Virus record (IMG/VR): IMGVR_UViG_3300031994_000006
Coordinates: 143,795 to 207,794 of that record
Length of the DNA stretch: 64,000 nt
From: a virus
Lineage: Duplodnaviria; Caudoviricetes
Reading direction: 5' to 3' (one strand)
Each line of letters opens with the position of its first letter. Position 1 is the first letter of the stretch. This document shows, piece by piece, positions 15,328-30,087 of the stretch. The notes under the pieces are model-generated. The model did not search any database. It was not told the origin of the DNA and saw nothing but the letters and a program-made list of their open reading frames with translations. The position numbers and the translations under genes are program-made.

Positions 15328-15441
15328 ATGATTTTCGCAATAACAAATATACGTCCGGTGAACGTCTACGGTAATGATGACCGCAGGCGCGAAGGTACGT
15401 ATGCAGAGGCCGGAAGGCCCGAGGGTTATACGGAAATATAA
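15328..15441 (+). CDS. putative attenuator leader peptide A (MIFAITNIRPVNVYGNDDRRREGTYAEAGRPEGYTEI)
   Basis: 37 codons; 34 of 36 post-start codons are read by tRNAs of the downstream array (counting Tyr via the aberrant GTA tRNAs); stop codon abuts the antiterminator arm. Confidence 0.75.
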   Translation: MIFAITNIRPVNVYGNDDRRREGTYAEAGRPEGYTEI

Positions 15442-15443
15442 TG

Positions 15444-15550
15444 ATCCTGTCAGAAATTCAAGTTCAGATGAGTGCTGATTAGAGATTTCGGAATTATTGA
15501 ATGATATGAACGGATGACAGGATTACCGGAGACGGGAATCCTGTTTTTTT
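15444..15550 (+). terminator. attenuator A: antiterminator arm plus intrinsic terminator
   Basis: ATCCTGTCA (15444-15452) is the exact complement of TGACAGGAT (15515-15523), the 5' arm of the terminator ACAGGATT-ACCGGAGACGGG-AATCCTGT-TTTTTT. Confidence 0.75.
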
Positions 15551-15656
15551 ATGCCTGACGATGTGACCGGCCGTAAACCGGAGCGTTTTATAGATACAAG
15601 GCGACTGCGGCCGCCTGGCAAGAAGGGCCTCAAGGGGTCCGGGCCGAAAACCGCGG

Positions 15657-15673
15657 AGTTCTTTGACATATTG
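15657..15673 (+). promoter_or_regulatory. rrn boxA-like antitermination site
   Basis: AGTTCTTTGACATATTG, recurring with small variations at 23864 and 30177 at the heads of tRNA runs. Confidence 0.65.
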
Positions 15674-15715
15674 ATACATGATATAGCAAGGGTGCGGATT
15701 CGTCCGCACCTGTCT

Positions 15716-15790
15716 GGGGGATTAGCTCAGCCTGGTTAGAGCGCCTGCATGGCATGCAGGAGGTCACGGGTCCGAATCCCGTATCCTCCA
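15716..15790 (+). tRNA. tRNA-Ala(GGC)
   Basis: Cloverleaf, anticodon loop ATGGCAT, T-loop TCCGAAT. Confidence 0.9.
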
Positions 15791-15803
15791 CACTATTTTA
15801 ATT

Positions 15804-15897
15804 GCCGAGATAACGGCGTTGGTCTGTAAAACCAATCTGCTTTAACAAATTGTCGTAGTGGACTCGCAGTAAGCAGGTTCGAATCCTGCTCTCGGCA
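15804..15897 (+). tRNA. aberrant tRNA-Tyr(GTA): no D-arm, long variable region
   Basis: GCCGAGA/TCTCGGC acceptor, TTGGT-CTGTAAA-ACCAA anticodon arm, perfect T arm; only 8 nt between acceptor and anticodon stem. Confidence 0.6.
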
Positions 15898-15906
15898 CAT
15901 TTATCT

Positions 15907-16356
15907 TAACAGAGCCTCCGTAAGCCGAGGAGAAAGGGCGTTGCAGAGCGGTCACCGGGACCTGTCATGAGTTCCGCCCGCCGATGACGCAGCCCGAATG
16001 CGGTGAAGTCCGATATACCGCATACCGTTGGCCGGCTGGGAATCGAAGGTGACGGCACGGAAGGGCGGACCTCCTGCCTGCAGGCACTGAGTTAGGGACA
16101 CAGATTCCGGGATGTCGGGAACACGGTCAAGGTAACGGACAGGCTCTGAACCATAACAGTATGACTGCTCTAATCCGGCGGACGCGCCGGTGGTAATGAG
16201 GCGCCCCATACGCGCTCTCCCCTCCATGGCCAATCGGGGAAGCTCTCGGGGACTGTGAAGGGAAGTCCTGTAGAAGCGACGGGGCGAAGGTCACAGCGGA
16301 AGGTCACGTCCGAAGGTCAAAGGGTGTGATTTAGCGTGCAAAGGCACATGCTGTTA
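15907..16356 (+). ncRNA. large (~450 nt) structured ncRNA candidate
   Basis: No credible ORF; long-range complementarities TAACAG/CTGTTA, CAGAGCCT/AGGCTCTG, TCCGCCC/GGGCGGA; lies between tRNAs. Confidence 0.5.
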
Positions 16357-16359
16357 TTT

Positions 16360-16431
16360 GCGGGTATAGCTCAGGGGTAGAGCGTCTGCTTGCCATGCAG
16401 AAGGCCGTGGGTCCGAATCCCATTACCCGCT
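16360..16431 (+). tRNA. tRNA-Gly(GCC)
   Basis: Cloverleaf, loop TTGCCAT, T-loop TCCGAAT. Confidence 0.9.
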
Positions 16432-16439
16432 CATACCTT

Positions 16440-16511
16440 GCCCTGGTAGCTCAGCGGTAGAGCGCCTGCCTTGTAAGCAGGATGTCGTCGGTTCGAATCC
16501 GGCCCGGGGCT
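16440..16511 (+). tRNA. tRNA-Thr(TGT)
   Basis: Cloverleaf, loop CTTGTAA. Confidence 0.92.
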
Positions 16512-16643
16512 CGTCGAAAGAGATTTGAGGCTCAACGTAACGTCGGCAGTCCCTGAAGCCGTAAGGCGTATTCAAACTGCTGCCCGATCGTAGGTGCGGG
16601 AAGATTCGGTTCCGTTTTCCGGTTATAATAACGGACATTTTCA

Positions 16644-16777
16644 TGCTGGTTTACGCAGTATATCGGCGACTGCACCGGGGCGTACATCCGGACCCTTTCT
16701 GGAAAACCGTCGCAACCGCGGATAAGCGGCGGTGACTATAGCGGGGGTATGAAGGTTCGACTCCTTCGAAGGCACCA
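16644..16777 (+). ncRNA. tRNA-like RNA (GTA loop) with very large variable arm and encoded CCA
   Basis: D arm GCAGT/ACTGC, CCGGG-GCGTACA-TCCGG, ~55-60 nt insert, GAAGG-TTCGACT-CCTTC, ends GGCACCA; imperfect acceptor stem. Confidence 0.5.
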
Positions 16778-16783
16778 AAACTC

Positions 16784-16996
16784 AGTGACGAAGTTTAACG
16801 GATGCTTCCACCTGGGATCCGTGGGGCGGCGCGAATCTGCAGAGCGCCGTGAAACCTGCGCAGCCAGGTTAAAAGGGACGGGATTAGAGGCCAAGCAAGC
16901 CATGGATAAAGCGAGGAGCCGAGTTGACCGTCTTGGAATGCGAAGAACTCCGGCGTAATGAGCCGGGAGTAGCGGGTTCGACTCCCGCCGTCGCTA
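16784..16996 (+). ncRNA. tRNA-like RNA with ~148-nt D-loop insertion (anticodon loop GTAATGA)
   Basis: AGTGACG/CGTCGCT acceptor, GTTT/GAAC D stem, CCGGC/GCCGG anticodon stem, canonical T arm. Confidence 0.6.
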
Positions 16997-17174
16997 CAAT
17001 CGGGATCGGCTGAACGCCGTCTGCTGCAGTCAGCCACGGAATTGCTACTCGTGGTAGCCTTGTGCATTTGTGTACAGGACGAACCGACGCAGGTTAAATG
17101 ACTGTTTACCGGTATGTCGGGTACCGGGGCGGTGAAGATGACGCGAGGCCTTGCGCAGGTCCCGAGCTTTATAC

Positions 17175-17304
17175 GGGGTGTTCCTGCAGTGTCTCAGGAC
17201 CGGGCCGGAGCGGTGAAAGCATGCTGTAGTAGCCGCAGGCCGTCGGTTCCGCACTCAAAAGAAGGGCACGTGTACATGACGCAGGATAAAGTGCACATCC
17301 CACC
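17175..17304 (+). ncRNA. structured ncRNA, paralogue 1 of a GAGCGG-TGAAA-GCATGCT-AGTAGCC family
   Basis: 7-bp terminal stem GGGGTGT/ACATCCC + ACC; core shared with 17605-17729. Confidence 0.55.
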
Positions 17305-17348
17305 CATGACGGCAGCCGGGCCTCCGTCTTATAAATTGTCCGGCACGA

Positions 17349-17421
17349 GGAGCAGTAGTTCAGCTGGTAGAGCGCCACCCTGTCACGGTGGAAGTCGCGG
17401 GTTCGAGTCCCGTCTGTTCCG
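17349..17421 (+). tRNA. tRNA-Asp(GTC)
   Basis: Cloverleaf, loop CTGTCAC. Confidence 0.92.
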
Positions 17422-17604
17422 CATTATGGAGAGACCCCGGGGTCCAAGTCCGCCCGAACACGCGGAAAGGTCGCGACGAGTACGTGTGCAAGGCTCGGGC
17501 CGGTATTACCATGGCGCCTGTGTTGATTCCGGACACAATGGCTCTCCACCTATACGGTTCGATTTGCCGGTCAGACGCCGGGTCCGTTCAAAACCCGGCA
17601 AGCC

Positions 17605-17729
17605 GGGATGCACAGGATAATCCTGTATGCGCTGAGCGGGGTGAAATGCATGCTAAGTAGCCTCCAGTAGGTGTATACAAGGAGAGTAAAAGGGCGATCG
17701 GCATATGCCTGTAGCGTCCGCGTCCCACC
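17605..17729 (+). ncRNA. structured ncRNA, paralogue 2 of the same family
   Basis: 7-bp terminal stem GGGATGC/GCGTCCC + ACC; shared core motifs. Confidence 0.55.
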
Positions 17730-17764
17730 GATACGGTTCCCGGTTCTCCGTGAAACCGGGCTAT

Positions 17765-17836
17765 GCGGAAGTAGCTCAGTGATAGAGCATCTGCCTTCCA
17801 AGCAGAGGGTCGCGGGTTTGAGCCCCGTCTTCCGCT
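17765..17836 (+). tRNA. tRNA-Gly(TCC)
   Basis: Cloverleaf, loop CTTCCAA. Confidence 0.9.
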
Positions 17837-17881
17837 CATACATGCCGGGTGATCCGCGGTTGCATCGCCGCGCCGGCTCCA

Positions 17882-17953
17882 GCTTCTGTAGCTCAGTGGT
17901 AGAGCAATTCACTGTTAATGAAAAGGTCGCAGGTTCGATCCCTGCCGGGAGCG
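17882..17953 (+). tRNA. tRNA-Asn(GTT)
   Basis: Cloverleaf, loop CTGTTAA. Confidence 0.88.
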
Positions 17954-17960
17954 CTTAAAT

Positions 17961-18036
17961 TGGGGTGTAGCTCAGTCGGTTAGAGCGGCGGACTGTTAAT
18001 CCGTGTCTCGCGTGGGTTCGATTCCCACCTCCCCAG
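17961..18036 (+). tRNA. tRNA-Asn(GTT)
   Basis: Cloverleaf, loop CTGTTAA. Confidence 0.88.
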
Positions 18037-18040
18037 CGTT

Positions 18041-18114
18041 TGTACTGTAGCATCAGCGGGCCTATGCACCCCGGTGGTCCGGGGAGATCGGCGGTTCGAA
18101 TCCGCCCGGTACAG
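18041..18114 (+). ncRNA. tRNA-like RNA lacking a 7-nt anticodon loop
   Basis: Acceptor, D and T arms intact; anticodon arm is CCCCGG-TGGT-CCGGGG. Confidence 0.6.
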
Positions 18115-18122
18115 CATAATAT

Positions 18123-18244
18123 GGGGTCTTCGTTCAATGGAAGGTAAGCGCGCGATTGAGGACCTGGCGGAAAGCCGGTCCCGATTTCCTGCCGAAGGAT
18201 GCCGGGGAGACCCGGTGATTGACGTTCGAATCGTCGAGGCCCCG
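18123..18244 (+). ncRNA. tRNA-like RNA with 61-nt D-loop and GAGA tetraloop in place of the anticodon loop
   Basis: GGGGTCT/AGGCCCC acceptor, CCGGG-GAGA-CCCGG, TGACG-TTCGAAT-CGTCG. Confidence 0.6.
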
Positions 18245-18377
18245 CATAGACGTTCGGAGCATCCTGTTTCGTAAGATGCATCGCACTCGGCAGGATCAAC
18301 CCGGATGCGAAGGAGGTGACCGGCACTTCGGCACAGCGCTCAATACCGGAAAATCCGGACCTCCTTTTTACACATAA

Positions 18378-18451
18378 GGGCCTGTAGCTCAGTTGGTTAG
18401 AGCAACAGACTCATAATCTGGAGGTCGTGGGTTCAAGCCCCTCCAGGCCCA
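18378..18451 (+). tRNA. tRNA-Ile2(CAT), probably lysidine type reading ATA
   Basis: Loop CTCATAA; GGGCCTG acceptor with A73 resembles bacterial Ile2; leader A has three ATA codons. Confidence 0.8.
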
Positions 18452-18455
18452 CTCT

Positions 18456-18541
18456 GGCAGGCTATGCGGTGCCGATACTTCTGCGGTGGCTGAACACATT
18501 CGACTGTAAATCGAACTTAAAACGGCCCGTAATCCCCTGCT
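18456..18541 (+). ncRNA. Y-RNA-like scaffold copy 1 (Tyr GTA anticodon-arm insert)
   Basis: GGCTAT...TACTTCT stem enclosing TTCGA-CTGTAAA-TCGAA. Confidence 0.6.
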
Positions 18542-18549
18542 TGTCTCTA

Positions 18550-18641
18550 ATAAACGGCTATACTCGGCGGCTACTTCTGCAAGCTGTAGTCAGCGCCTGA
18601 TTCGTAATCTGGAGAAACGCCCGCCGGTCCTTTCCGTTTAT
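18550..18641 (+). ncRNA. Y-RNA-like scaffold copy 2 (Thr CGT anticodon-arm insert)
   Basis: GGCTAT...TACTTCT...TTTCC enclosing CCTGA-TTCGTAA-TCTGG. Confidence 0.6.
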
Positions 18642-18649
18642 CCTATACA

Positions 18650-18721
18650 TGCGGCTATGTCATCCGTTACTTCTCAAAGAATGATCTGCAACATCGTGTC
18701 CCACGGATGACTTTTTCCGCA
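18650..18721 (+). ncRNA. Y-RNA-like scaffold copy 3 (Cys GCA anticodon-arm insert)
   Basis: GGCTAT...TACTTCT...TTTCC enclosing TGAT-CTGCAAC-ATCG. Confidence 0.6.
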
Positions 18722-18743
18722 GTTTTACGTATAATAAACGACT

Positions 18744-18816
<73 letters not shown>

Positions 18817-18818
18817 CT

Positions 18819-18901
18819 AAACGGCTATCCGGCATGCTACTTCTCAGCTCGATAAAGAATGTAAAGGGTACATGCTATTCCGCTTGCCGGGTTTTCCGTT
18901 T
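18819..18901 (+). ncRNA. Y-RNA-like scaffold copy 4
   Basis: AAACGGCTAT...TACTTCT...TTTTCCGTTT. Confidence 0.55.
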
Positions 18902-18908
18902 TCCATAT

Positions 18909-18983
18909 GTTCCCAAGGGCGATATAGGTCGAGCCACAGGACTTTCGATCCTGAAAAAGTGGGTTCGATTCCCACTGGGAATA
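18909..18983 (+). tRNA. tRNA-Glu(TTC)
   Basis: Cloverleaf, loop CTTTCGA. Confidence 0.85.
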
Positions 18984-18989
18984 CTCAAT

Positions 18990-19063
18990 GCTCCCATAGG
19001 CGAACTGGTTAAGCCGTCACACTCTCAATGTGGAGATTCCGGGTTCGAGTCCCGGTGGGAGTA
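18990..19063 (+). tRNA. tRNA-Glu(CTC)
   Basis: Cloverleaf, loop CTCTCAA. Confidence 0.88.
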
Positions 19064-19146
19064 CGCAAAGTCCCGGCTGGGCCTGCTGTTCATGCAGGAC
19101 TTAGGGGCCGGCGCCGTGGGGCCACCGTCAAAAACCCCACTCCTTC

Positions 19147-19221
19147 GGGGCGTTAGCTCAGTCCGGTCAGAGCACCTGCTTTGCAAGCAGGGGGTCGACG
19201 GTTCGAATCCGTCACGCTCCA
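19147..19221 (+). tRNA. tRNA-Ala(TGC)
   Basis: Cloverleaf, loop TTTGCAA, G3:U70. Confidence 0.92.
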
Positions 19222-19341
19222 CGAAAGGGAAAGCGTGTAGAAACCGGCGGCGGCCGGCGGAGCCTCAGGCAGGATATCCCCTCGGCATAACGGACCGGCT
19301 CTGACCGGTACCATGCCGTCAGTCTTTGGTCCTGTCAACCT

Positions 19342-19422
19342 GCCGGAATGGGACAGTGGTCGACTCCATCGGTATCGTAAACCGACTCGAAAGACACGGC
19401 GGTTCGAATCCGCCTTCCGGCT
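19342..19422 (+). tRNA. tRNA-Thr(CGT) with 12-nt variable arm
   Basis: Cloverleaf, loop ATCGTAA. Confidence 0.82.
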
Positions 19423-19427
19423 CCTAA

Positions 19428-19556
19428 GGCAGGCTATGGCCGCTGCTACTTCTCCTTAGCGGAGTACGCGAGAAGGCTCAGCGACGTGATTCATTGCACG
19501 TGTACCGGGGTTCGAATCCCCGCCCCGCTGTCAGTCGTCACGGTCTGTTCCCTGCC
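19428..19556 (+). ncRNA. Y-RNA-like scaffold copy 5 enclosing a whole tRNA-like cloverleaf (19458-19530)
   Basis: GGCAGGCTAT...TACTTCT...TTCCCTGCC; inner cloverleaf has an 8-nt loop ATTCATTG. Confidence 0.6.
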
Positions 19557-19565
19557 CCTGTACAG

Positions 19566-19666
19566 TCCGGCTATCCGCCTGTGGTTACTTCTGAAGCTGG
19601 TTACTCGTAGGTTCGAATCCTGCTTTTTCCGCCATGGGAAAAAAGTCACCGCACGGTCTTTCCGGA
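19566..19666 (+). ncRNA. Y-RNA-like scaffold copy 6 (T arm + loop-closed acceptor minihelix)
   Basis: GTAGG-TTCGAAT-CCTGC then TTTTTCC-GCCATG-GGAAAAA inside the GGCTAT/TACTTCT/TTTCC stem. Confidence 0.6.
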
Positions 19667-19776
19667 TTTCCATAAGCGTTCAGCCGCCCGGGCAGGTCAC
19701 ATACAGGCGACAAGCCCCGTGACTCCGGACGGGCCTGCGCGTTTAACGGTTATATACGGAAACCAAAGACATATCA

Positions 19777-20349
19777 ATGCGATACATTTTCTTCGACACC
19801 GAGACGACGGGCGTTCCCAGGAACTACAAGGCGCCGTCGACGGATACGGACAACTGGCCGCGGCTCGTGCAGCTCGGCTGGATCCTGGCGGACGGACCTG
19901 ACACAGTCGTCCATACGGGAAACCTGATCGTCAGGCCCGACGGATTCGAGATACCCGAGGAGGCCGCGAACGTGCACGGTATACACACGGCCGACGCTCT
20001 GGAGAAGGGCATACCCCTGGCCGACGCGATCAATCAGTTCATAGAGGATCTCAATCAGGCCGACCTGATTGTAGGACATAATGTCGGTTTCGACCTCAAG
20101 ATCGTGGGCGCCGAGATGGTCCGCCTGGGTATCGGCGACATGATGGAATCCAAGCCTCATTTCGACACGATGCAGGCGTCGACGAGCTACTGCGCCATCC
20201 CTGGCAAGTTCGGGTACAAGTGGCCGAAGCTCATGGAGCTGCATCAGAAGCTGTTCGAATGCGGCTTCGAGGATGCGCACGACGCCATGGCAGATATCAC
20301 GGCGACGGCCAGGTGCTTCTGGGAAATGATGAGAAGAGGCCTTGCATAG
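19777..20349 (+). CDS. DEDDh 3'-5' exonuclease (DnaQ-like)
   Basis: FFDTETTG, VGHNVGFD and HDAMADI motifs. Confidence 0.9.
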   Translation: MRYIFFDTETTGVPRNYKAPSTDTDNWPRLVQLGWILADGPDTVVHTGNLIVRPDGFEIPEEAANVHGIHTADALEKGIPLADAINQFIEDLNQADLIVGHNVGFDLKIVGAEMVRLGIGDMMESKPHFDTMQASTSYCAIPGKFGYKWPKLMELHQKLFECGFEDAHDAMADITATARCFWEMMRRGLA

Positions 20350-20350
20350 T

Positions 20351-20440
20351 ATGATAGTGATGAATACCGAGGCGATAGTCGCCGCCTGTGTGATAGGGGC
20401 GTGCCTCATAGCATGGATGATATTCCATAAGGACCGTTAG
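20351..20440 (+). CDS. small membrane peptide (29 aa)
   Basis: MIVMNTEAIVAACVIGACLIAWMIFHKDR, coupled to the exonuclease stop. Confidence 0.4.
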   Translation: MIVMNTEAIVAACVIGACLIAWMIFHKDR

Positions 20441-20449
20441 GTCCTGAAT

Positions 20450-20539
20450 GCACGGGTAAAGCGTAACTGGATGACCGCCCCGGTCTACGAAACCGGTCTA
20501 TCTGAAAAGAAGTTGCGGGTTCGAATCCCGCCCCGTGTA
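20450..20539 (+). tRNA. tRNA-Arg(ACG) with 18-nt variable arm
   Basis: GCACGGG/CCCGTGT acceptor, loop CTACGAA, canonical T arm. Confidence 0.8.
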
Positions 20540-20668
20540 CACAGACAGGGCAGCACTCCGTAGAGTCTGAGATTCACCATTCTCTTTGCGGACCATACTG
20601 TCCTTTGTCGCGGAATTCGCCGGCATGCCCGGTGATATATAAACCAAAATCAACCAAACAGCAAGACT

Positions 20669-21346
20669 ATGAAGAAGCTCATGGGCCTGGCGTTTATCTG
20701 CCTCATGGCCTGTATGACATTCATGCTCACCGGCTGCACCAAGTGTGCCGGAGACAAGACCGAGCCCGCCATGGACAGTGTCGCGACTGATTCTGCAAAG
20801 ACAGATACCGTCGTGACGGAGGGCTACAACGTGGAGCAGGTCATCTCCACCGATCGTCAGGCCATGTTCATGGCCTACAAGCAGGACTATCGCTGGTATG
20901 AGACCTGCATCGTCCTGAAGGACTTCCTTGACGAGGACTGCGACGGCACCGTCGTCGGCCTGTCCAATATCTTCCAGGTCGTCTTTGAGGAGGGCAACGG
21001 CGCCGATGTTTATGTCGTCATGTATGCGCATGCGGCCAACAAGGGCGATTCTGTGACGACCGTGCATTCATTCTGGATTGAAGATTATGACATGGGTAAG
21101 GAGCCTGTGAAGATGATTACGTTCGCAGAGGCCTTCCAGAAGATCCAGGAGACTAACTATCCGAAACCGCATTCCAAGCACTGCGTGCTCCGTAAGGAGG
21201 TGGGACCGAAGGACTGCAATCCTCAGTACATCTTCGGCAACGCACAGGCTCAGCTCTATGTGGACGCCGTAACCGGCAAGGTCAGTCCTGACAATCCCGT
21301 ATTCGAGGGCGTAAAGCTGGCCAAGCCTCTCGGTGAGTGGCCCTGA
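20669..21346 (+). CDS. lipoprotein
   Basis: Signal peptide MKKLMGLAFICLMACMTFM-LTGC lipobox. Confidence 0.75.
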   Translation: MKKLMGLAFICLMACMTFMLTGCTKCAGDKTEPAMDSVATDSAKTDTVVTEGYNVEQVISTDRQAMFMAYKQDYRWYETCIVLKDFLDEDCDGTVVGLSNIFQVVFEEGNGADVYVVMYAHAANKGDSVTTVHSFWIEDYDMGKEPVKMITFAEAFQKIQETNYPKPHSKHCVLRKEVGPKDCNPQYIFGNAQAQLYVDAVTGKVSPDNPVFEGVKLAKPLGEWP

Positions 21347-21451
21347 TAAAGGGACAGGATAACACATGATAAATTGCAGATTTGAAATATTCAAATCTGC
21401 AATTTTAGCATTTATGACCTCAGGTTATATAATGCGTTAAAATATTACAAT

Positions 21452-21524
21452 CGGGATGTAGCCCAGTAGGTAGGGCGCTACGTTCGGGACGTAGAGGTCG
21501 CTGGTCCGAGTCCAGTCATCCCGA
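21452..21524 (+). tRNA. tRNA-Pro(CGG)
   Basis: Cloverleaf, loop TTCGGGA, T-loop TCCGAGT. Confidence 0.9.
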
Positions 21525-21527
21525 CTT

Positions 21528-21663
21528 CGGAAGATGGTGTAGGCGCACAGCCGGGTTGGTCCGGCACCCGCGGAAATAAGAGGATCCGGAATACCGCGGA
21601 GCAATGGGCATTCGTGCAATGCCGTATGCGGTGACCGAAGCAGCGAGCGGTCTCTTCCGTCCA
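21528..21663 (+). ncRNA. tRNA-like RNA with 7-bp acceptor stem and encoded CCA, non-canonical interior
   Basis: CGGAAGA/TCTTCCG-T-CCA with several internal hairpins; abuts tRNA-Pro(GGG). Confidence 0.45.
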
Positions 21664-21737
21664 CGGGGTGTAGCTCAGTAGGTTAGAGTACGCGTCTGGG
21701 GGGCGTGAGGTCGTCCGTTCGAGTCGGATCACCCCGA
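21664..21737 (+). tRNA. tRNA-Pro(GGG)
   Basis: Cloverleaf, loop CTGGGGG. Confidence 0.9.
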
Positions 21738-21741
21738 CAAT

Positions 21742-21813
21742 CAGGATATAGCACAGCGGCAGTGTGCATGGTTTGGGACCATGCGGTCGGCGGTTCGAAT
21801 CCGTCTATCCTGA
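21742..21813 (+). tRNA. tRNA-Pro(TGG)
   Basis: Cloverleaf, loop TTTGGGA. Confidence 0.9.
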
Positions 21814-21994
21814 CAGATCAATGAGGATCCTCTGAGATGGGTGCTCCAAGGTAGAAGCTTGAGGATTTAAACGGATAATGTTTTATGCGACAACAAAAGC
21901 AGCTGTTCATTCAGCAGCGCCCGTGGGTATTAATCCCGATGAAAATATCGCCTCATTTGATTTAAACGGATACAAACAGACAAAGACATACAGT

Positions 21995-22438
21995 ATGAGA
22001 TTTCTTCGTTCAGAGACCGTCGTATCGGTCGAGGATCTTAAGGCACAGGGACTGCAGGAGCAGCGCGTGCAGACGGACTATCACGGCAAGAACCGTGAGA
22101 GCATGTGGGGCTATCTCCTCGGGGACGGCTCGGTCGTCCTGGTCAACACGCCGGTTGCCGCCCATCCGTTTCCGCTCTGGGGACTTGTCGCGTCGCCTGA
22201 GCATGTCAAGGACGGCGACGGCAAATGCAGGCTTGTCATTCTTGACGATATCATCAAGGAGACTCCGGACGAGGCGGTTATCACCCTGATGCAGGAGGCA
22301 TATGACTTCCTGAATGAGAAGGGCGAGCTCAAGGAGGACGGTACCCTTGATACAGGACTCTATATCGATCGCCGCAATGCGGAAATCGAGAAATTGCGCC
22401 TGGAGAAGGTCGACAGGCCTGAAGAGGATGAACGCTGA
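21995..22438 (+). CDS. hypothetical protein
   Basis: ORF with likely start MRFLRSE at 21995. Confidence 0.6.
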   Translation: MRFLRSETVVSVEDLKAQGLQEQRVQTDYHGKNRESMWGYLLGDGSVVLVNTPVAAHPFPLWGLVASPEHVKDGDGKCRLVILDDIIKETPDEAVITLMQEAYDFLNEKGELKEDGTLDTGLYIDRRNAEIEKLRLEKVDRPEEDER

Positions 22439-22439
22439 T

Positions 22440-22607: not shown

Positions 22608-22617
22608 CCCGGGTTAT

Positions 22618-22691: not shown

Positions 22692-22692
22692 C

Positions 22693-22983: not shown

Positions 22984-23048
22984 CTCAGCCGGTTCAGAGC
23001 ACCTGGCCTACAACCAGGGGGTCGGCGGTTCGAATCCGTCCGGGAACA
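22974..23048 (+). tRNA. tRNA-Val(TAC)
   Basis: Cloverleaf, loop CCTACAA (C33). Confidence 0.88.
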
Positions 23049-23055
23049 CAGACGC

Positions 23056-23129
23056 ACGCCCGTAGCTCAGCGGATCAGAGCGCCGGACTCCGGATCCGGA
23101 GGTCGCGGGTTCGAGTCCCGCCGGGCGTA
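23056..23129 (+). tRNA. tRNA-Arg(CCG)
   Basis: Cloverleaf, loop CTCCGGA. Confidence 0.92.
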
Positions 23130-23143
23130 CGGATATATACACC

Positions 23144-23848
23144 ATGATAAAATCAGTTCAATACTGTTTACATTGCGGTAAACCTTTGAATAAGACACAG
23201 AAAAAATTCTGTTCAAGATCTTGTTCAGCATCATTTACGAATAAGGGAAAAATTCACTCAGAGTCAAGCAGACATAAATGCAGTGAATCTGTAAAACGTA
23301 TCCGTAGGCATACTGAAAGAATCTGTAAAGTATGCGGATGTTCTTATTATTATGTCAAACATATATCCACTAAGATTTTCTGTTCTCATAAATGTTTTGA
23401 ATATTATAAATCACATAAGAATGAATTTCTTTCACCTGATTCAATCAGGCGGATGTCAGAAGGCGGACGGAAGAGCATGGATATACAAAAAGATTCCAGG
23501 AGATCCAGAAATGAAATAGAGTTCTGTTCATTATGTGAGGAAAAATTCGGTACAGCTGCAGTTTTGCATAATATACCTTACTTTAATGGATGGGATGCTG
23601 ATGTTATTATACCTGAATTAAAAATAGCGATATTATGGAATGGTGCCTGGCACTATAAACAGATATATGATAAAAGTTCATTGATTCAGATTAAGAATCG
23701 TGATAACATAAAAATATCTGAAATCAAAAAAGCAGGATTTATTCCATATGTTATTAAGGATTTGGGAAAGGCAAATTCTGAATTTGTCAAAAATCAATTT
23801 AATATTTTTTGTAAATGGATTGATGACCTTTCAGAATCTGTGCATTAA
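23144..23848 (+). CDS. putative homing-type endonuclease (Zn-finger repeats + Vsr/PD-(D/E)xK-like C-terminus)
   Basis: CLHCG..FCSRSC and CKVCG..FCSHKC repeats; DADVIIPELKIAILWNGAWHY; visibly AT-rich. Confidence 0.65.
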   Translation: MIKSVQYCLHCGKPLNKTQKKFCSRSCSASFTNKGKIHSESSRHKCSESVKRIRRHTERICKVCGCSYYYVKHISTKIFCSHKCFEYYKSHKNEFLSPDSIRRMSEGGRKSMDIQKDSRRSRNEIEFCSLCEEKFGTAAVLHNIPYFNGWDADVIIPELKIAILWNGAWHYKQIYDKSSLIQIKNRDNIKISEIKKAGFIPYVIKDLGKANSEFVKNQFNIFCKWIDDLSESVH

Positions 23849-23863
23849 ATATATAAATAGTTT

Positions 23864-23880
23864 AGTTCTTTGACTTATTG
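23864..23880 (+). promoter_or_regulatory. rrn boxA-like site
   Basis: AGTTCTTTGACTTATTG ahead of the Met/Met/Ala/tmRNA run. Confidence 0.6.
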
Positions 23881-23890
23881 AAACCTATAT

Positions 23891-23975
23891 AGCGGGATGG
23901 TGTAGTTGGTAACACAACAGCCTCATAAGCTGTGGACAGATAATGCTTGCGCAGGTTCGAGTCCTGCTCCCGCAA
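23891..23975 (+). tRNA. tRNA-Met(CAT), 1:72 mismatch, 17-nt variable arm
   Basis: Loop CTCATAA, canonical T arm. Confidence 0.75.
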
Positions 23976-23987
23976 CATAATTAACAT

Positions 23988-24059
23988 CGCGGTGGTGGTA
24001 GCAATGGTAGCTCGCAAGACTCATAATCTTGAGACGTGGTTCGAATCCAACGACCGCAA
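23988..24059 (+). tRNA. tRNA-Met(CAT), initiator-like C1:A72, imperfect T stem
   Basis: Loop CTCATAA; CGCGGT/ACCGCA acceptor. Confidence 0.6.
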
Positions 24060-24064
24060 CAAAG

Positions 24065-24142
24065 ATTCGGCTATTGGTTGGATTACTTCTGTAAACTTCT
24101 TAACCATGACATCCAGGAATTCATCCTTCCGTCTTTCCGAAT
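24065..24142 (+). ncRNA. Y-RNA-like scaffold copy 7
   Basis: ATTCGGCTAT...TACTTCT...TTTCCGAAT. Confidence 0.55.
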
Positions 24143-24238
24143 TGTTCTTTCCGGGGATGACGACATGTACGGCAACCGGTTGCCGTGAAACAGGTCCGTC
24201 TGATGACGTTTGTCCGGTGACGCATGTCCACCCGGGGT

Positions 24239-24336
24239 TTCCGGCTATCGGCCAGATTACTTCTATGCAGCGGGCGTTGACCGTCCGCGGCAGACCATCT
24301 TACACAGTCTTGTAACATCTGTCTGTATTTCCGGAG
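24239..24336 (+). ncRNA. Y-RNA-like scaffold copy 8
   Basis: TCCGGCTAT...TACTTCT...TTTCCGGA with two internal hairpins. Confidence 0.55.
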
Positions 24337-24340
24337 TTTT

Positions 24341-24414
24341 GGGGTATTAGCTCAGTTGGCCAGAGCGCTTGCTTCGCATGCAAGAGGTCGACGGTTCGAA
24401 TCCGTCATGCTCCA
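24341..24414 (+). tRNA. tRNA-Ala(CGC)
   Basis: Cloverleaf, loop TTCGCAT, G3:U70. Confidence 0.92.
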
Positions 24415-24415
24415 C

Positions 24416-24568
24416 TTTGACGAATGGCTATTGTACAGCATACTTCTCCAAAGTATGTTTCCAAGAGGCAGGTCGCGGGTTCGAATCCCGTCCGTCCCCA
24501 ACGGGGACGTAGCTCAGCGGTTCAGAGCGGCATCTATTACTGGGCTGTACGGCTTTCCAGGAGTCAAG
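24416..24568 (+). ncRNA. Y-RNA-like scaffold copy 9 with circularly permuted tRNA domain (YrlA-like)
   Basis: T arm, then CGTCCCC-AAC-GGGGACG closed acceptor, then D arm, inside the GGCTAT/TACTTCT/TTTCC stem. Confidence 0.7.
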
Positions 24569-24574
24569 GCAAAC

Positions 24575-24703
24575 ATATCCGGCTATTCGGGAGGATACTT
24601 CTGAGGGAATGTAGTGTCGCCGGTTCGAGCCCGGCTATTTCCGTGGGAAATATGGCGCAGGTGGTAGCGCATACGTGTATGGCCTGCTGGGGTTTCCGGA
24701 TAT
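24575..24703 (+). ncRNA. Y-RNA-like scaffold copy 10 with circularly permuted tRNA domain (YrlA-like)
   Basis: ATGTA-GTGTC-GCCGG TTCGAGC CCGGC-TATTTCC GTG GGAAATA-TG-GCGC AGGTGGTA GCGC-A-TACGT. Confidence 0.7.
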
Positions 24704-24719
24704 TTCAAACTGTATTGAT

Positions 24720-24902
24720 ATGGATAAAGGCGCGATTGAGAGGGTCAATGAGATCAAGATGCTTCCGATGTACTTCGTGACGATGATCTCGGCCGACGTT
24801 CTTACATCTGTAGAGGTCTGTGACAGGAATGAGAAGGACCTGCTGGAGACACTGGAGGAGATGCCGAAGACGGATCTCCCGGATGAGGAGAAATCCAAAT
24901 AG
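24720..24902 (+). CDS. hypothetical small protein
   Basis: MDKGAIERVNEIKML..., 60 aa. Confidence 0.45.
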   Translation: MDKGAIERVNEIKMLPMYFVTMISADVLTSVEVCDRNEKDLLETLEEMPKTDLPDEEKSK

Positions 24903-25183
24903 ATTGAAATGGGCAAGCGGGGCCTGAAGATCATCAGGCGCGATCGTAAGGATCTCAGGAAGGCCGGGAGGCTGACCGAGCCGCCGGAGCCCGAAGATAT
25001 TGACGCCTCCGCCGGTCATGAACGCCGGAGGATCGAATAAGCCGCAGGTTCCAGCCCTGCGGACCCGGAACGTGAGCCGGGACACGGTTGCGAACAGGTT
25101 TTCCGTGTACTTGAGAGGCTGATGCGGGGCCCACTGAGGGATGAGATGCCCCATAACCCGCAGAAACCTTTTCATCCTTATCT

Positions 25184-25629
25184 GGGCTTGTATTTGGGTT
25201 TGACGGGCGGAATGATAAGGAGGACATGCAGGAAGGCAGTTTCCATAAAGGCAAAGCCAATAACCGGCAACAAGAAAGCAAAGGTCGTCAAGATGACGGC
25301 AGCTCGCGCGACCATGAAGATGGCTGCTTAATCCGATAGGATTCAAGTTTCGCGCCTGGGATTGCAGGGGATCCCAAGGGACATAAGGGCGAGCCTTCGG
25401 GCAGCCTGCCCCCGCCGACGAGGTCTGGACGGCATCCCTTACCGCAAAGCCGTAACCTGGTGGAACAGTTGACCTCCGGTCAGCCCCTCAGCGGAAGATC
25501 CTCCGGGATCGTTTGACCGCACAGGAGAAGAATACTCCTGAGGCCTCCGGGCCTGAACAAATTGAAAAGCATGTACAATCCTCTGATGCTGAACGTTCGG
25601 ACGGGGGTTCGAATCCCCCCAGGTCCACC
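25184..25629 (+). ncRNA. ssrA: tmRNA
   Basis: GGGCTTG/CAGGTCC acceptor with G3:U70, TTTTGAC 5' motif, T arm GGGGG-TTCGAAT-CCCCC, tag ORF 25266-25331 GNKKAKVVKMTAARATMKMAA*. Confidence 0.9.
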
Positions 25630-25734
25630 CTGAAAGCGGTCCAATAGTCGGATCGTTTTTTATTATGACATGAGAAGAACCTGTCATAATAAATAATATG
25701 ACCAACCTGGCAAGGCATGCCTCAGGGCATGTAC

Positions 25735-25763
25735 AGGTCCTCCGGACAGGGGGACCTTTTTTT
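25735..25763 (+). terminator. intrinsic terminator ending tRNA array A / tmRNA
   Basis: AGGTCCTCC...GGGGGACCT followed by a T run. Confidence 0.65.
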
Positions 25764-25793
25764 ATTTCCGCGTAAAAAGATATATAGATTGTT

Positions 25794-26021
25794 ATGAAAC
25801 TGATTCAGCAGAGAATCGTCAGATATACCGACGAATCGGGCACTGACTGGTTTGCGTCGCAGTATATGACCGGTGGAACCTATAAATTCCGCACAGGGGA
25901 ATGGTTCCGGACCGAGGACGAGGCGAAATCCACGCTGATCTCACCCTGTCTGCTTAAGCCGTTGAAGACGGTTACCAGAGAATATCTTGACATCTGCGGG
26001 GTATACATACCTTCCGCTTAA
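25794..26021 (+). CDS. hypothetical protein
   Basis: 75 aa ORF after a GATATATA motif. Confidence 0.5.
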   Translation: MKLIQQRIVRYTDESGTDWFASQYMTGGTYKFRTGEWFRTEDEAKSTLISPCLLKPLKTVTREYLDICGVYIPSA

Positions 26022-26040
26022 TTTTTAAATAAAGACGAAT

Positions 26041-27357
26041 ATGAAAAAGTTTATTTTCTTTGCGGTGGCGCTTCTGTCTGTCCTGGTCTGGTCCTGTACC
26101 AGCCATGATATCGATACGCCCGACTGGTCCGCTCAGCAGAAGGCGGGCTATGCGAATGACTTCAACACTGCCTTTGGCGTCAGCGCGGCTGACTATGCCA
26201 ATCACCAGTGGGGAACCGACATCATCCCGATGATTGATATCACCGGTACCTCTCAGGCCCGTACCCGTGCGGCGGATCCGAAAGGCAACGAATGGGCGGC
26301 CAACGGCTATACCGTGCCCGGAGCCATCACGGCATCTGAACTCGAGGATGTCCTTGAGGTATTCAACAAGAAGGGCGATGCCACCTATACCTCACTGGTG
26401 GACTGGGACTGCTTCTTTGTGCAGCAGGTATACAAGGGCACCGCCAAGTATACGAATCACGCAGGCGGTCAGGTGACCGGTTCCGAACATATGGACTGGC
26501 TCTGCACCGTTACCAACAAGCATGTGGAGGTCGTCAGCTGGTGGCCCTATGAGGAGAAGATTACCATCGGCGCTGACTATGATGATCATATCAATAACTT
26601 CAACAACGGCAACTGCGGCGCATGGGACGGCCTGATGCTCATGGTCAATACGAATTCCAATAAGTTCGGATTCAAGAGCTCTGAGGACAACGGACATGTG
26701 TTCTACAACTTCCGCATGGAGAAGATCAAAGGCAATTACTATGTCGGATTCGACTTTGAGGCCGCGGGCGCCAATCCCAACGAGCAGGTCGACCGTGACT
26801 TCATCTATAATGACTGGATTGTGAAGATCGTGCCGGGTAAGGGCGTCACGCCTCCTCATCCCGACGTGGACCGCGTCCGTATCATGTGTGAGGACCTCGG
26901 TACAGCTCATTCGGACTTCGACTATAACGACGTCGTGTTCGATATCAAGTTCATCAAGAACGGCAGCACTGTTACGGCCGATATCGTACTGCAGGCCGCA
27001 GGCGGCACGCTGCCCCTGACCGTAGGTGGATATGAGGTTCATGAACTGTTCGATGTCGCCGTCACGGATATGGTGAATACCGGCGCAGGTCCCCAGCGCG
27101 ATCCCGTGCCCTTCACTGTGACGATGCCCCGCTCTGACTATGCGACCGCATGGGAGGCCATCAATGACCTGCCTGTCATCGTGCTCTACAGAGCGTCCGC
27201 TCCCATCACGCTTACCGTATCCCCGGGTACCCCAGCCGAGATGATTGCGGTGCCTTCTACGACCGCATGGCCCGGTGAGCGTCAGTCAATACGCAACAGG
27301 TATCCCGCGTTCGTCGACTGGATCAGCGATTCCACGGTGCAGTGGTGGAACGAGTAG
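26041..27357 (+). CDS. Bacteroidales-type lipoprotein (DUF4842/LruC-like C-terminal domain)
   Basis: Lipobox VWSC; RIMCEDLG..SDFDYNDVVFD..LQAAGGTLP motif, recalled from Prevotella lipoproteins. Confidence 0.7.
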   Translation: MKKFIFFAVALLSVLVWSCTSHDIDTPDWSAQQKAGYANDFNTAFGVSAADYANHQWGTDIIPMIDITGTSQARTRAADPKGNEWAANGYTVPGAITASELEDVLEVFNKKGDATYTSLVDWDCFFVQQVYKGTAKYTNHAGGQVTGSEHMDWLCTVTNKHVEVVSWWPYEEKITIGADYDDHINNFNNGNCGAWDGLMLMVNTNSNKFGFKSSEDNGHVFYNFRMEKIKGNYYVGFDFEAAGANPNEQVDRDFIYNDWIVKIVPGKGVTPPHPDVDRVRIMCEDLGTAHSDFDYNDVVFDIKFIKNGSTVTADIVLQAAGGTLPLTVGGYEVHELFDVAVTDMVNTGAGPQRDPVPFTVTMPRSDYATAWEAINDLPVIVLYRASAPITLTVSPGTPAEMIAVPSTTAWPGERQSIRNRYPAFVDWISDSTVQWWNE

Positions 27358-27376
27358 CATACAGCTGACAAATATG

Positions 27377-27404
27377 AAAAGGCCGCAGGAATGCGGCCTT
27401 TTTT
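27377..27404 (+). terminator. intrinsic terminator
   Basis: AAAAGGCCGCA-GGAA-TGCGGCCTTTTTT. Confidence 0.8.
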
Positions 27405-27451
27405 GTTTCTGTGCGTTATATGTTTATGAAAATATCAAGTAATACTGGCGC

Positions 27452-28099
27452 ATGATTATATGCGGATATGCCGGAATCGGCAAGAGCTGGCTCGGTCATA
27501 ACATGCCGGGCGTCATGGATCTGGAGTCCACGCCCTTTCAGAAGGACTGGGCGACATACTGCAGGTGCGCCATGCACTATCACAGCCAGGGCTATCTCGT
27601 CCTGTTGTCGTGCCACAGGGAGATCAGGGAGGCCGTGCACAAGGCCATTCATATGTGCTACTTCGACGAGGTGACGTTCATGCCGGATCCCGGTGACAAG
27701 GAGCTGTACATGAAGAAGTACGAGGAGCGCGGCAACACGCCGGAGTTCATCAGGATGCAGTCTGAGAACTGGGATAGGTGGCTTGACGAGCGGTCACAGG
27801 GGATCATCGCCGAGCATTGGGAGTACCTCAGGCCGGGTGAGAACCTGTACCAGGGTATACTCAGGCTGTCGGATCCCAATTACGCATGGAAATACTGCGC
27901 GGCTGATCCGTATTGCGTCGAGATGCCGCCCGTATGCCCGGCAATCGGCAACTGCTATAACCCGTTCAGGGACATAGTCGCCAGATGGCCCCAGGACGAG
28001 CTCCGGAAGGCCTGGGCTGACAATGCCAAGGAAAACGGCTGGAAACGCTCTGGTGAGACCGTAAGGCCTGTTAAGGAAGGCTATGGGAAATATGATTGA
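27452..28099 (+). CDS. P-loop NTPase/kinase-like protein
   Basis: N-terminal Walker A GYAGIGKS. Confidence 0.7.
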   Translation: MIICGYAGIGKSWLGHNMPGVMDLESTPFQKDWATYCRCAMHYHSQGYLVLLSCHREIREAVHKAIHMCYFDEVTFMPDPGDKELYMKKYEERGNTPEFIRMQSENWDRWLDERSQGIIAEHWEYLRPGENLYQGILRLSDPNYAWKYCAADPYCVEMPPVCPAIGNCYNPFRDIVARWPQDELRKAWADNAKENGWKRSGETVRPVKEGYGKYD

Positions 28100-28478
28100 G
28101 AACATAAACATCGGTATCATTAAGGACGGCGTCACGAAGGCCGGCAATGTCTGTGTCGCCGACGTCGCCGGCCGCGAGGTCAGGGTCTGCTATGTCAGCT
28201 GGCCGATACCGAAGAATGATCACGGGAAGGACTCGAACTATTCGGTCCCGTCATGGGCCGCAAGTCACCGGCAAGGCCCGGCGGATTTCCTCGCGTTCCA
28301 GCTCGGACGGTGTGAGACGGCCGTCAAGGTCATTCCGGTCAGGGAGGTGTCGAGGATGACTGTCTCGTTCAATGCGGACTACGGTCTCCTGCCGGTATCG
28401 TCGGTTTTCGGATGGACCGACAGGCCCGTACCGCTTGAGAAGCTGCCGCCGGGTCCCGTACAGAGAAAACTTCTATAA
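28092..28478 (+). CDS. hypothetical protein
   Basis: ORF packed in the plus-strand operon. Confidence 0.55.
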   Translation: MIENINIGIIKDGVTKAGNVCVADVAGREVRVCYVSWPIPKNDHGKDSNYSVPSWAASHRQGPADFLAFQLGRCETAVKVIPVREVSRMTVSFNADYGLLPVSSVFGWTDRPVPLEKLPPGPVQRKLL

Positions 28479-28490
28479 ACAGCTTGAGAT

Positions 28491-28808
28491 ATGAATACAG
28501 TGAGTGAAATAAGGAACGGAAACCCCAATAAGGTGAACTACCGTTACAACTATGCCATCGAGTATACCGATGAGACGAAGGACTGCGGCAGCAGGACCGT
28601 GTTGTCCGACAGGATGGAGGACGTCACGGAGGACGTCAGGAAGTTCATCCGTGATACCGTTGAGGATTTCAACAAGACTCCCCATGATACGCTCGGTATT
28701 ATCGATATCCGTGTATACGGCCTGTGCCGTACGGAGTACCCTCAGTTTGATCAGCAGGATTTCCATGAGAATGTCATAGTGCCGGCCTTAAAGGATGCCC
28801 TGAAATGA
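28491..28808 (+). CDS. hypothetical protein
   Basis: 105 aa ORF in operon. Confidence 0.6.
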   Translation: MNTVSEIRNGNPNKVNYRYNYAIEYTDETKDCGSRTVLSDRMEDVTEDVRKFIRDTVEDFNKTPHDTLGIIDIRVYGLCRTEYPQFDQQDFHENVIVPALKDALK

Positions 28809-29335
28809 AAAAGGACAGGGTTGTAAAGGCCTCGGCCGTCATGGCCCTTCAGAAGGATGCCGTCCGGACCGTAATTACGGTCCGGTCAGGCGATGTCATG
28901 GAGGTCGCCGACAAGGCGGTCGCCGATCTTACCAGGGATATTGACAGGTATCCTGAGATAATATGCAATGAGCTTATCAGGAATATTCTTCTCATGGCCG
29001 AGCACGGCGACTATTACATGAACTATGATACCGACAGGCTGTATGAGCTGCTTCCCGGATGGGATAAGGCCGAGCCGTCTGAGAAGAACGCGATAATCCG
29101 CAAGGTTGTGATCATGATGCTTGACGCGGGTTATATGATCAAGCCGTGCTATCTGTTCGGCGACGTGCTCTGGCACCTGGAGATCTCATGGTCGGACGAT
29201 ATGAGAAAGAAGGCTAACAGGAAGGCTGATAAGATACACAGAAACGAGCGCCGCCGTGAGTCTGTCAGGAAATTCTTCAGGGGTATCGCGGAATTCATGA
29301 GATGCGGTCTTTCATCGGAATACAGGAACCTATGA
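28805..29335 (+). CDS. hypothetical protein
   Basis: 176 aa ORF, ATGA overlap. Confidence 0.6.
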   Translation: MKKDRVVKASAVMALQKDAVRTVITVRSGDVMEVADKAVADLTRDIDRYPEIICNELIRNILLMAEHGDYYMNYDTDRLYELLPGWDKAEPSEKNAIIRKVVIMMLDAGYMIKPCYLFGDVLWHLEISWSDDMRKKANRKADKIHRNERRRESVRKFFRGIAEFMRCGLSSEYRNL

Positions 29336-29739
29336 AAAAGGACAGGAAGGTTACATGGACGCAGGTGTCGAACTGCAGCTTCAGATGCCCTGGCTGCTGC
29401 GAGATCTCGAATGCTTTCATAAAGACACTGGATGCCGAATGGGCTAAGTTCAGGGCGGACGAGGAAAGGAAACGGCAGTTTGAGTGCGTGCCTGATGTCG
29501 CGGTGATTATCGAGAAGATGATTCCTGAAATGGACGAAAGGATAAAGCAGGCCGCGGACTGCGGCAATTACAGGACGACGCTCTACCTGGATCATCTGGA
29601 CAGGCATCTTGAGTACTATAAGGCCAAATACAGTCCTGATGAGATATACAGCGAATTGCGTAAATATTATAAGTCTCGCGGATATAAGATGGATTCGGAC
29701 ATGAATCATGTACTCGGCTTCGAAATCTGGTGGAAATAA
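29332..29739 (+). CDS. hypothetical protein
   Basis: Start MKKDRKV, ATGA overlap; similar start to the upstream gene. Confidence 0.6.
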   Translation: MKKDRKVTWTQVSNCSFRCPGCCEISNAFIKTLDAEWAKFRADEERKRQFECVPDVAVIIEKMIPEMDERIKQAADCGNYRTTLYLDHLDRHLEYYKAKYSPDEIYSELRKYYKSRGYKMDSDMNHVLGFEIWWK

Positions 29740-29833
29740 TGCAAAAAAACGTTAAAAAGATAAATAAAAGGAGTTTTTTAAAGGATTCGGCGTCAGTACC
29801 GGCGTTAAATAGACAGAACAAAGCAAAGAAGAT

Positions 29834-29950
29834 ATGAGATCGTTGTTACAAAAATCATTCAGCTCAAAGTGCCTCCTTAAGGGCATTCAGAGTATGTCGC
29901 AGTTTACCTGCTGGCATATTCAGCTGGATAATATGTACACGGTCGAGTAG
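29834..29950 (+). CDS. putative attenuator leader peptide B (MRSLLQKSFSSKCLLKGIQSMSQFTCWHIQLDNMYTVE)
   Basis: 38 codons; 29 of codons 2-31 are read by tRNAs of the downstream array; the last codons form a pairing arm. Confidence 0.75.
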   Translation: MRSLLQKSFSSKCLLKGIQSMSQFTCWHIQLDNMYTVE

Positions 29951-30087
29951 CGAATCAGGAGTTCAGAGACTGTGTATGAATCCGGGAGAAAACGGAAAGA
30001 CGCAGTCAAGTAAAGGAACCCAATCACAAAGTTTCCATAATTTCCAAGGGACTGCGTAATCGAAAGAGGACGCAGTCCTGTTCTTTT
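29936..30087 (+). terminator. attenuator B: five alternating pairing segments ending in an intrinsic terminator
   Basis: TACACGGTC 29936, GACTGTGTA 29968, ACGCAGTC 30000, GACTGCGT 30050, ACGCAGTC 30070, then GTTCTTTT. Confidence 0.75.

Follow-up and report, generated by a model that had tools for sequence, protein, structure and literature searches.

Leader-peptide attenuators are best known from amino-acid operons, such as ilvGMEDA of E. coli with its ilvL leader, thrL, trpL, hisL and pheL. The E. coli pheST attenuator with its pheM leader is a case in which a gene of the translation apparatus is under leader-peptide control. Accounts of the many tRNAs encoded by phages usually treat them as constitutive patches for codon usage or as a reserve against host tRNases, and to our knowledge essentially nothing is known about their regulation. 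Here we describe two tRNA arrays in a stretch of 64,000 nucleotides (the window; all coordinates are positions in it) of the Caudoviricetes virus IMGVR_UViG_3300031994_000006, a single IMG/VR record of 207,794 bp with 54% GC. Array A (15716-24415; about 27 tRNA genes with interspersed open reading frames, ORFs) and array B (30095-34888; about 22 tRNA genes) were delimited with ARAGORN and Rfam. Each is preceded by a short ORF, as a preliminary description made from the sequence alone had stated: leader A, of 37 codons (15328-15441), lies 275 nt ahead of the first tRNA, and leader B, of 38 codons (29834-29950), ends 145 nt ahead of the first array-B tRNA. Arrays, leaders and the control elements described below are all on the + strand. 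We think it likely that each array is headed by a ribosome-mediated transcription attenuator, whose leader ORF is a codon inventory of the array, and that each set of tRNAs is probably made only when the sampled codons are read slowly.

The arrangement is similar to the attenuators of amino-acid operons in that it has a leader ORF with regulatory codons and mutually exclusive terminator and antiterminator pairings, between which the position of the ribosome would decide; unit B even has a trp-like chain of alternative pairings. It differs from them in the breadth of sensing (about 11-20 tRNAs through 1-3 codons each, as opposed to 1-3 amino acids through tandem codons), in the targets, which are the tRNAs themselves and not biosynthetic enzymes, and in that it is encoded by a phage, occurs several times per genome and has a boxA-like site after it. 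As with pheM, decoding speed would feed back on the supply of a decoding component, but pheM responds to one tRNA and controls a synthetase, whereas here whole arrays would be controlled by a sensor that lists their anticodons. T-box riboswitches are likewise leader RNAs ahead of translation-related genes, with a terminator switched by tRNA status; a T-box binds a single uncharged tRNA directly and lacks an ORF, whereas in the window the codons stand in frame in an ATG-to-stop ORF, and the T-box family (Rfam RF00230) had no match in 14000-36000 at E <= 0.1. The boxA-like sequence GTTCTTTGACA, which we take to resemble bacterial rrn boxA, heads a long untranslated operon of structured RNA, as in rrn boxA/Nus antitermination, but here the putative site follows a proposed attenuator, and the operon is one of phage tRNAs. 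What would be new is the sensor logic and the target, tRNA genes; attenuation itself is known. No account of tRNA genes controlled by a leader peptide came up in full-text literature searches, and the author of the preliminary description likewise knew of none.

ARAGORN called 41 tRNAs, all on the + strand within 15716-34888, and Rfam and ARAGORN at a relaxed threshold supplied further genes; the resulting contents of the arrays are those that had been read from the sequence. Array A encodes Ala, Tyr-like, Gly, Thr (TGT, CGT), Asp, Asn, CAT, Arg (CCT, ACG, CCG), Glu, Pro and Val tRNAs, array B encodes Phe, Ile (GAT), Lys, Gln, His, Trp, Met, Cys, Leu, Arg (TCT), Ser and Thr (GGT) tRNAs, and together the phage tRNAs read all sense codons but CTA. 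Codons were matched to anticodons by standard wobble rules, ATA being counted as read by a CAT tRNA. On this basis array A can read every one of codons 4-37 of leader A (34/34), and 29 of the 30 codons in the sensor part of leader B (codons 2-31) are readable by array B, if a Lys-TTT-like gene (see below) is counted; the dominance of array-B codons claimed for this segment is therefore complete except for a single GGC. Leader A samples 18 of about 21 distinct anticodons of its own array and leader B 19 of 20, Ser-GGA being missed. Leader A contains no Leu, Ser, Lys, Gln, His, Cys or Trp codon, and the match extends to isoacceptors, both as previously observed: Arg is encoded by CGT, CGC and AGG in A and by AGA in B, Thr by ACA and ACG in A and by ACC in the B sensor, Ile by three ATA codons (plus ATT at codon 2) in leader A and by two ATT codons in leader B. 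The joint probability of these isoacceptor choices under the codon usage of the genome is ~5e-5.

In the long ORFs of the phage array-A codons make up 61% and array-B codons 41%, and against this background the chance of finding 34/34 A codons is ~6e-8 per codon window and that of at least 29/30 B codons ~1e-10, thus the concordance is far beyond what genome codon usage would produce, a comparison that the preliminary description had proposed. Among the 415,000 windows of a genome-wide scan, in which each stretch of 34 or 30 codons was scored in all six frames, leader B was the unique maximum for the number of distinct array-B anticodons covered, and leader A tied for the top coverage of array A, with the highest purity. 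The codon match was 0.94 with its own array and 0.19 with the sister array for leader A, 0.78 and 0.24, respectively, for leader B. As this comparison is made within one genome, codon usage is controlled for.

The same relationship was found in relatives (L-numbers denote fetched loci, G-numbers genomes), most of which were reached through homologues of the 5'-3' exonuclease gene located 1 kb upstream of leader A. These homologues are many, on contigs of up to 780 kb; for the 145-aa protein upstream of leader B no relatives were found in IMG/VR. The exonuclease-linked loci mostly have tRNA arrays downstream with a short ORF ahead of each, and in the multi-array genomes that were fetched every array has its own leader. 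L001, in which the flanking exonuclease is 93% identical, has a conserved leader A, with substitutions that do not leave the array-A codon set. The L005 array contains Lys, Ile(GAT), Ser and Arg(TCT) tRNAs and its leader K, ATT, S and AGA; Ser occurs in both array and leader of L002, and L055, where Ser-TGA has been gained, has seven Ser codons in the leader. Distant, AT-rich relatives carry small Cys/Gln/Phe/Pro/Leu/Tyr/Glu(/Thr) arrays with leaders dominated by those residues, and Lys/Gly/Val/Asp/Asn/Trp/Ala/Met/Arg/Ile arrays have matching leaders of their own. His is present in both leader and array of G003 and in neither for array 2 of G004. In L103, which was reached independently through the terminator-boxA pattern, the array consists only of Glu, Ser, Tyr, Gly and Cys tRNAs, and 25 of the 32 leader residues belong to this set (P = 8.5e-11). 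Leader-terminator units also stand ahead of both arrays of the phage Lak-A1 (MK250016.1): 21 of the 41 leader residues of array 1 fall in its His/Pro/Arg/Gly/Cys/Met set (background 0.14, P = 3e-8), and the two array leaders have in common a promoter region of ~60 nt ending in TAGATATATATAAT.

In G004 the match of leader 1 was 0.66 with its own and 0.31 with the sister array, that of leader 2 0.76 vs 0.09; the corresponding values in G003 were 0.55 vs 0.21 and 0.61 vs 0.11. Glu, Pro and Tyr are grouped with Cys/Phe/Leu/Gln in G004 and G003 and with Ala/Gly/Asp/Asn/Val in the window, Lys, Ile and Trp have moved between the arrays in the reverse sense, and the leaders track both moves. The covariation spans at least five different amino-acid alphabets, and the pooled odds ratio for the presence of an amino acid in leader and array is 16.6, so that the question raised earlier, whether leaders co-vary with array content in relatives, can be answered positively. 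In L105 and L106 the sole sensor change in leader B is at codon 14, CTC to TCT/TCC, which covers the Ser-GGA missed in the window. L105 also bears on the Lys-TTT-like gene of array B (30400-30470), a low-scoring call made only by ARAGORN at the relaxed threshold that fits the AAA codon of leader B: a 324-nt stretch around it is 95% identical in L105, and there the gene is called at a stricter threshold. The leader of L106 is 98% conserved, but its neighbouring spacers are equally so, thus this conservation is not a specific sign of selection.

Two other observations were made in the relatives. The third array of G004 is headed by tRNA-His(GTG) and contains His, Met, Ser, Thr and Ile tRNAs; 56 nt before tRNA-His(GTG) ends a 24-codon ORF with five His codons (L075, reverse complement, 1858-1932), which may be a single-amino-acid version of the same control. 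Amber suppressor-like tRNAs with a CTA anticodon are encoded in G004 (L076, reverse complement, 2099) and G001 (L079, reverse complement, 13908) and are absent from the window phage. Recoding of TAG was considered for the TAG stop codon of leader B and rejected, as the ORF statistics of the window phage agree with the standard code and no CTA tRNA was found.

An intrinsic terminator comes after each leader, and each array has a boxA-like site nearby, as previously noticed. In unit A the promoter-like sequence AATATATAA (15296-15304) lies about 24 nt ahead of the leader start. The motif (G/A)ATATATA has ~25 copies in the genome, where ~1.5 per strand would be expected, and most copies lie 15-35 nt ahead of an ATG codon (in the window at 15296, 20634, 23132, 23848, 25779, 52682 and 54537), and it is found also ahead of leaders in relatives; it is likely a -10-type element of the promoters of this phage. 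The antiterminator strand GATCCTGTCAG (15443-15453), at about +1..+12 past the stop codon, is the best complement of the 5' arm of terminator A anywhere in the leader (-14.9 kcal/mol, z = -5.9). Terminator A (ACAGGATTACCGG...CGGGAATCCTGT followed by T7; 15517-15550) is a hairpin plus T-run, and between it and the first tRNA lies GTTCTTTGACA (15658-15668). In unit B codons 32-38 of the leader carry relay segment 0 (TACACGGTC, 29937-29945), which, as read from the sequence, is complementary to segment 1 (GACTGTGTA, 29968-29976); segment 1 pairs with segment 2 (GACGCAGTC, 29999-30007) in the minimum free energy (MFE) fold. Segment 2 is the antiterminator strand and the best complement of the 5' arm of terminator B (-14.0 kcal/mol). 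Terminator B (GGACTGCGT...ACGCAGTCC followed by TGTTCTTTTAT; 30049-30089) has its arms, segments 3 and 4, at 30049-57 and 30070-78, then a T-run, and the boxA-like site (30178-30188) is located past tRNA-Phe, the first tRNA of array B. GTTCTTTGACA occurs in only three exact copies genome-wide, of which two are at the heads of the arrays.

This anatomy recurs in relatives with quite different sequences. An intrinsic terminator is present in 15 of 17 related units, in most of them 25-45 nt past the leader stop, and of all upstream sequence the stretch that best complements its 5' arm is found in the final codons of the leader or directly next to the stop codon, again in 15/17 units (at -28..-2 relative to the stop in most relatives). 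It must be noted that terminators and ORFs were assigned by hand for WIN_B, L042 and L056 and by eye for L009, L010 and L103. Complement and terminator change together, for example GGAGGG/CCCTCC, AGAGGAC/GGCCTCT and CCGAGAGGG/CCCTCCTCGG, and also TTCAAACGA in L009, CTAAACGAC in L010 and TACTTGAG in Lak-A1. Because the leader tails encode the antiterminator strand, they use codons that do not belong to the array. A boxA-like GTTCTTTGA/GTTCTTTAA motif is found past the terminator in nearly all units. The units thus combine a short leader ORF, array-matched codons, an intrinsic terminator and an antiterminator placed so that the position of the ribosome would decide. A scan for the pattern CCCTCC...GGAGGGTTTTT...GTTCTTT yielded 27 loci, most of them without tRNAs, and these were set aside as generic terminators.

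The ORFs, the codon/anticodon concordance, the terminators, the competing complementarity and the conservation with covariation are seen directly; that ribosomes translate the leaders, in which direction the switch works, what the boxA-like site does and what the physiological trigger is, we infer. In the proposed mechanism a phage promoter just upstream of the leader would start the transcript, and a ribosome would translate the leader while RNA polymerase advances to the intrinsic terminator. If the codons are read fast, the ribosome would reach the end of the ORF and cover the antiterminator in unit A and most relatives; in unit B it would cover segment 0, so that the 1:2 and 3:4 pairings form. 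Both would result in termination. If the ribosome lags at a sampled codon because the charged tRNA is scarce, the antiterminator would pair with the 5' arm of the terminator and the polymerase would read through, meet the boxA-like site, where it would probably become termination-resistant, and transcribe the array. The net effect would be a negative feedback maintaining the supply of just those tRNAs that the array provides. The earlier proposal that each leader induces the matching array is supported by the attenuator anatomy, its recurrence and the covariation; its part concerning read-through on stalling is deduced from the geometry of the units.

Folding calculations agree with this scheme in part. 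For unit A the MFE structure is the antiterminator and the centroid the terminator; in the model of the transcript before the 3' arm has been made, the predicted probability of the antiterminator is ~1 with the ribosome anywhere in codons 1-35 and ~0.4 with the ribosome on the last codons or the stop. The naked RNA of unit B is very stable (z = -5.7), with segments 1:2 and 3:4 paired and segment 0 paired with the 5' part of the ORF.

Several results weigh against the proposed mechanism. The pre-3'-arm snapshot of unit B is predicted to be nearly independent of ribosome position, and equilibrium folding of the full transcript gives the terminator at every ribosome position in both units, therefore the switch must be kinetic and the model rests on folding kinetics. 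No clear intrinsic terminator was found in L002 and L005, in spite of their matching leaders. ATT and TTC (codons 2-3 of leader A) and the GGC of leader B are not codons of the respective arrays, the array-A anticodons TGG, CCG and CGC have no Watson-Crick codon in leader A, and array B of L106 holds an Ala-GGC tRNA, for which there is no Ala codon in the leader. The reading of ATA by an Ile2-type CAT tRNA remains an assumption, since no TilS gene was found in the 208-kb record. Because each tRNA is sampled by 1-3 codons, in contrast to the tandem runs of classical attenuators, the sensitivity per tRNA may be low. Finally, promoter-like motifs occur inside array A (20634, 21426, 23132 and 23848); the last one is followed by a boxA-like site (motif and site together span 23848-23875, ahead of tRNA-Met at 23891 and without a leader) and by tRNAs with codons absent from the sampling of leader A. 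Because of these motifs part of array A may escape control by the leader.

These points have to be considered together with other explanations. The leaders might respond to general translation speed or amino-acid starvation, i.e. to charged tRNA and not to tRNA abundance, with Rho or RNA stability perhaps as the output. Attenuators inherently sense charged tRNA, as established for trp and his, and the equilibrium folds blind to ribosome position as well as the leaders of L002 and L005 would be compatible with such a sensor; on the other hand, a general speed sensor needs neither array-restricted codons nor covariation with array content, and 15/17 units do have a terminator with a matching complement in the ORF. 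We consider this explanation improbable. The proposed switch could also work with the opposite sign, stalling leading to termination and fast translation to read-through. Stalls at the last few sensor codons would indeed mask the antiterminator, and in unit 1 of Lak-A1 the antiterminator is 28-41 nt before the stop, where a ribosome at the stop codon leaves it uncovered. In most units, however, a ribosome standing at the stop codon would cover the antiterminator, and from most of the sensor codons it would be too far upstream to reach it. In unit A the antiterminator probability falls when the stop position is masked, and positive feedback on tRNA production, to which the opposite sign would lead, has no obvious benefit; we regard this sign as very unlikely. 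As for the possibility that the short ORFs encode functional small peptides, or are functionless, and match their arrays by chance or shared ancestry, the feature in its favour is that class-1 leaders have common peptide motifs (TY..QLPQ..CEE.FY), which could be due to a function of the peptide. Both window leaders are genome-wide extremes, the match recurs in unrelated alphabets and peptide sequences, and common descent cannot make the alphabet of a peptide agree with a set of tRNAs; we give this possibility hardly any weight, and the chance and peptide-function readings were rejected.

We thus favour read-through on stalling, which we propose on the basis of unit geometry. On balance, and with somewhat less confidence than we have in the attenuators as such, we expect the attenuators to form a modular tRNA homeostat of megaphages, in which the leader of each array lists its anticodons and a failing part of the decoding capacity of the host, sensed in real time, be it from codon-usage mismatch, host shut-off or anti-phage tRNases, calls up the matching array only. 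The link to anti-phage tRNases such as PrrC and PARIS is speculation, and plain feedback on tRNA supply fits the data equally well.

The window phage is a Lak-like rumen megaphage. Its nearest named phages are the Prevotella Lak megaphages (Devoto 2019, PMC6784885; Crisci 2021, PMC8346664), whose 5'-3' exonuclease is 43% identical; a similarity search of GenBank phage DNA with the window gave tRNA matches only. It shares with them the many tRNAs, the gut habitat and genes without Shine-Dalgarno motifs, but has 54% GC and the standard code, whereas Lak-A1 has 26% GC and reads TAG as sense. There is no mention of leaders, attenuation or terminators in the two Lak papers. If our interpretation is correct, tRNA genes would here be under attenuation control for the first time, and no leader-peptide sensor with a broader range of inputs would be known. 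This would mean that tRNA supply is measured and fed back on, that attenuation is able to integrate a dozen or more inputs, and that tRNA arrays are modular units of sensor and payload that evolve together. The signature, a leader alphabet equal to the array content, helps to locate operon boundaries and missed or odd tRNAs in genomes of huge phages, and the system is directly testable with defined tRNA pools in coupled transcription-translation.

Contigs from RNA libraries of sheep gut are identical to the window and cover many array segments, e.g. 19232-21554 and 30102-30682. As the matches are contigs, they carry no information on 5' or 3' ends and are silent on read-through and termination at the attenuators. 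The cover is low or absent at 14528-15191 and 28472-29799, which is unusable as evidence for a transcription start site.

Besides the Lys-TTT-like gene, the genes added by Rfam and relaxed ARAGORN, all on the + strand, were Arg-ACG (20450-20538) and a weak Met-CAT (23989-24058) in array A, Ser-TGA (32980-33062) and Ser-CGA (33069-33151) in array B, and the Tyr-like tRNA (15804-15897) with its GTA anticodon loop. In the latter the anticodon stem-loop (CTGTAAA) is perfect, but a normal D arm is missing and additional sequence follows; a tRNA-Tyr(GTA) with an intron has been reported in Lak phages (PMC6784885). Between the arrays are protein genes and a tmRNA gene (25184-25630; Rfam RF00023, 72.6 bits), and weak YrlA-like matches were seen at 24468-24674. 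Two tRNA-like genes in array A, 18041-18115 and 19457-19532, have anticodon loops of 6 nt and 8 nt (TCAT), the one with the 8-nt loop being kept in L001 (18201-18276); both might decode in an unusual way, for example with a frameshift. From the Tyr-like tRNA to tRNA-Gly there is a gap of 460 nt (15898-16359) with an RNA-contig depth of ~1,200-2,800, far above that of the neighbouring stretches. No Rfam family matches the gap even at E <= 10, and the z-score of its fold is ordinary. The stretch is conserved in L001, and it may be an abundant stable RNA of no recognised family inside array A.

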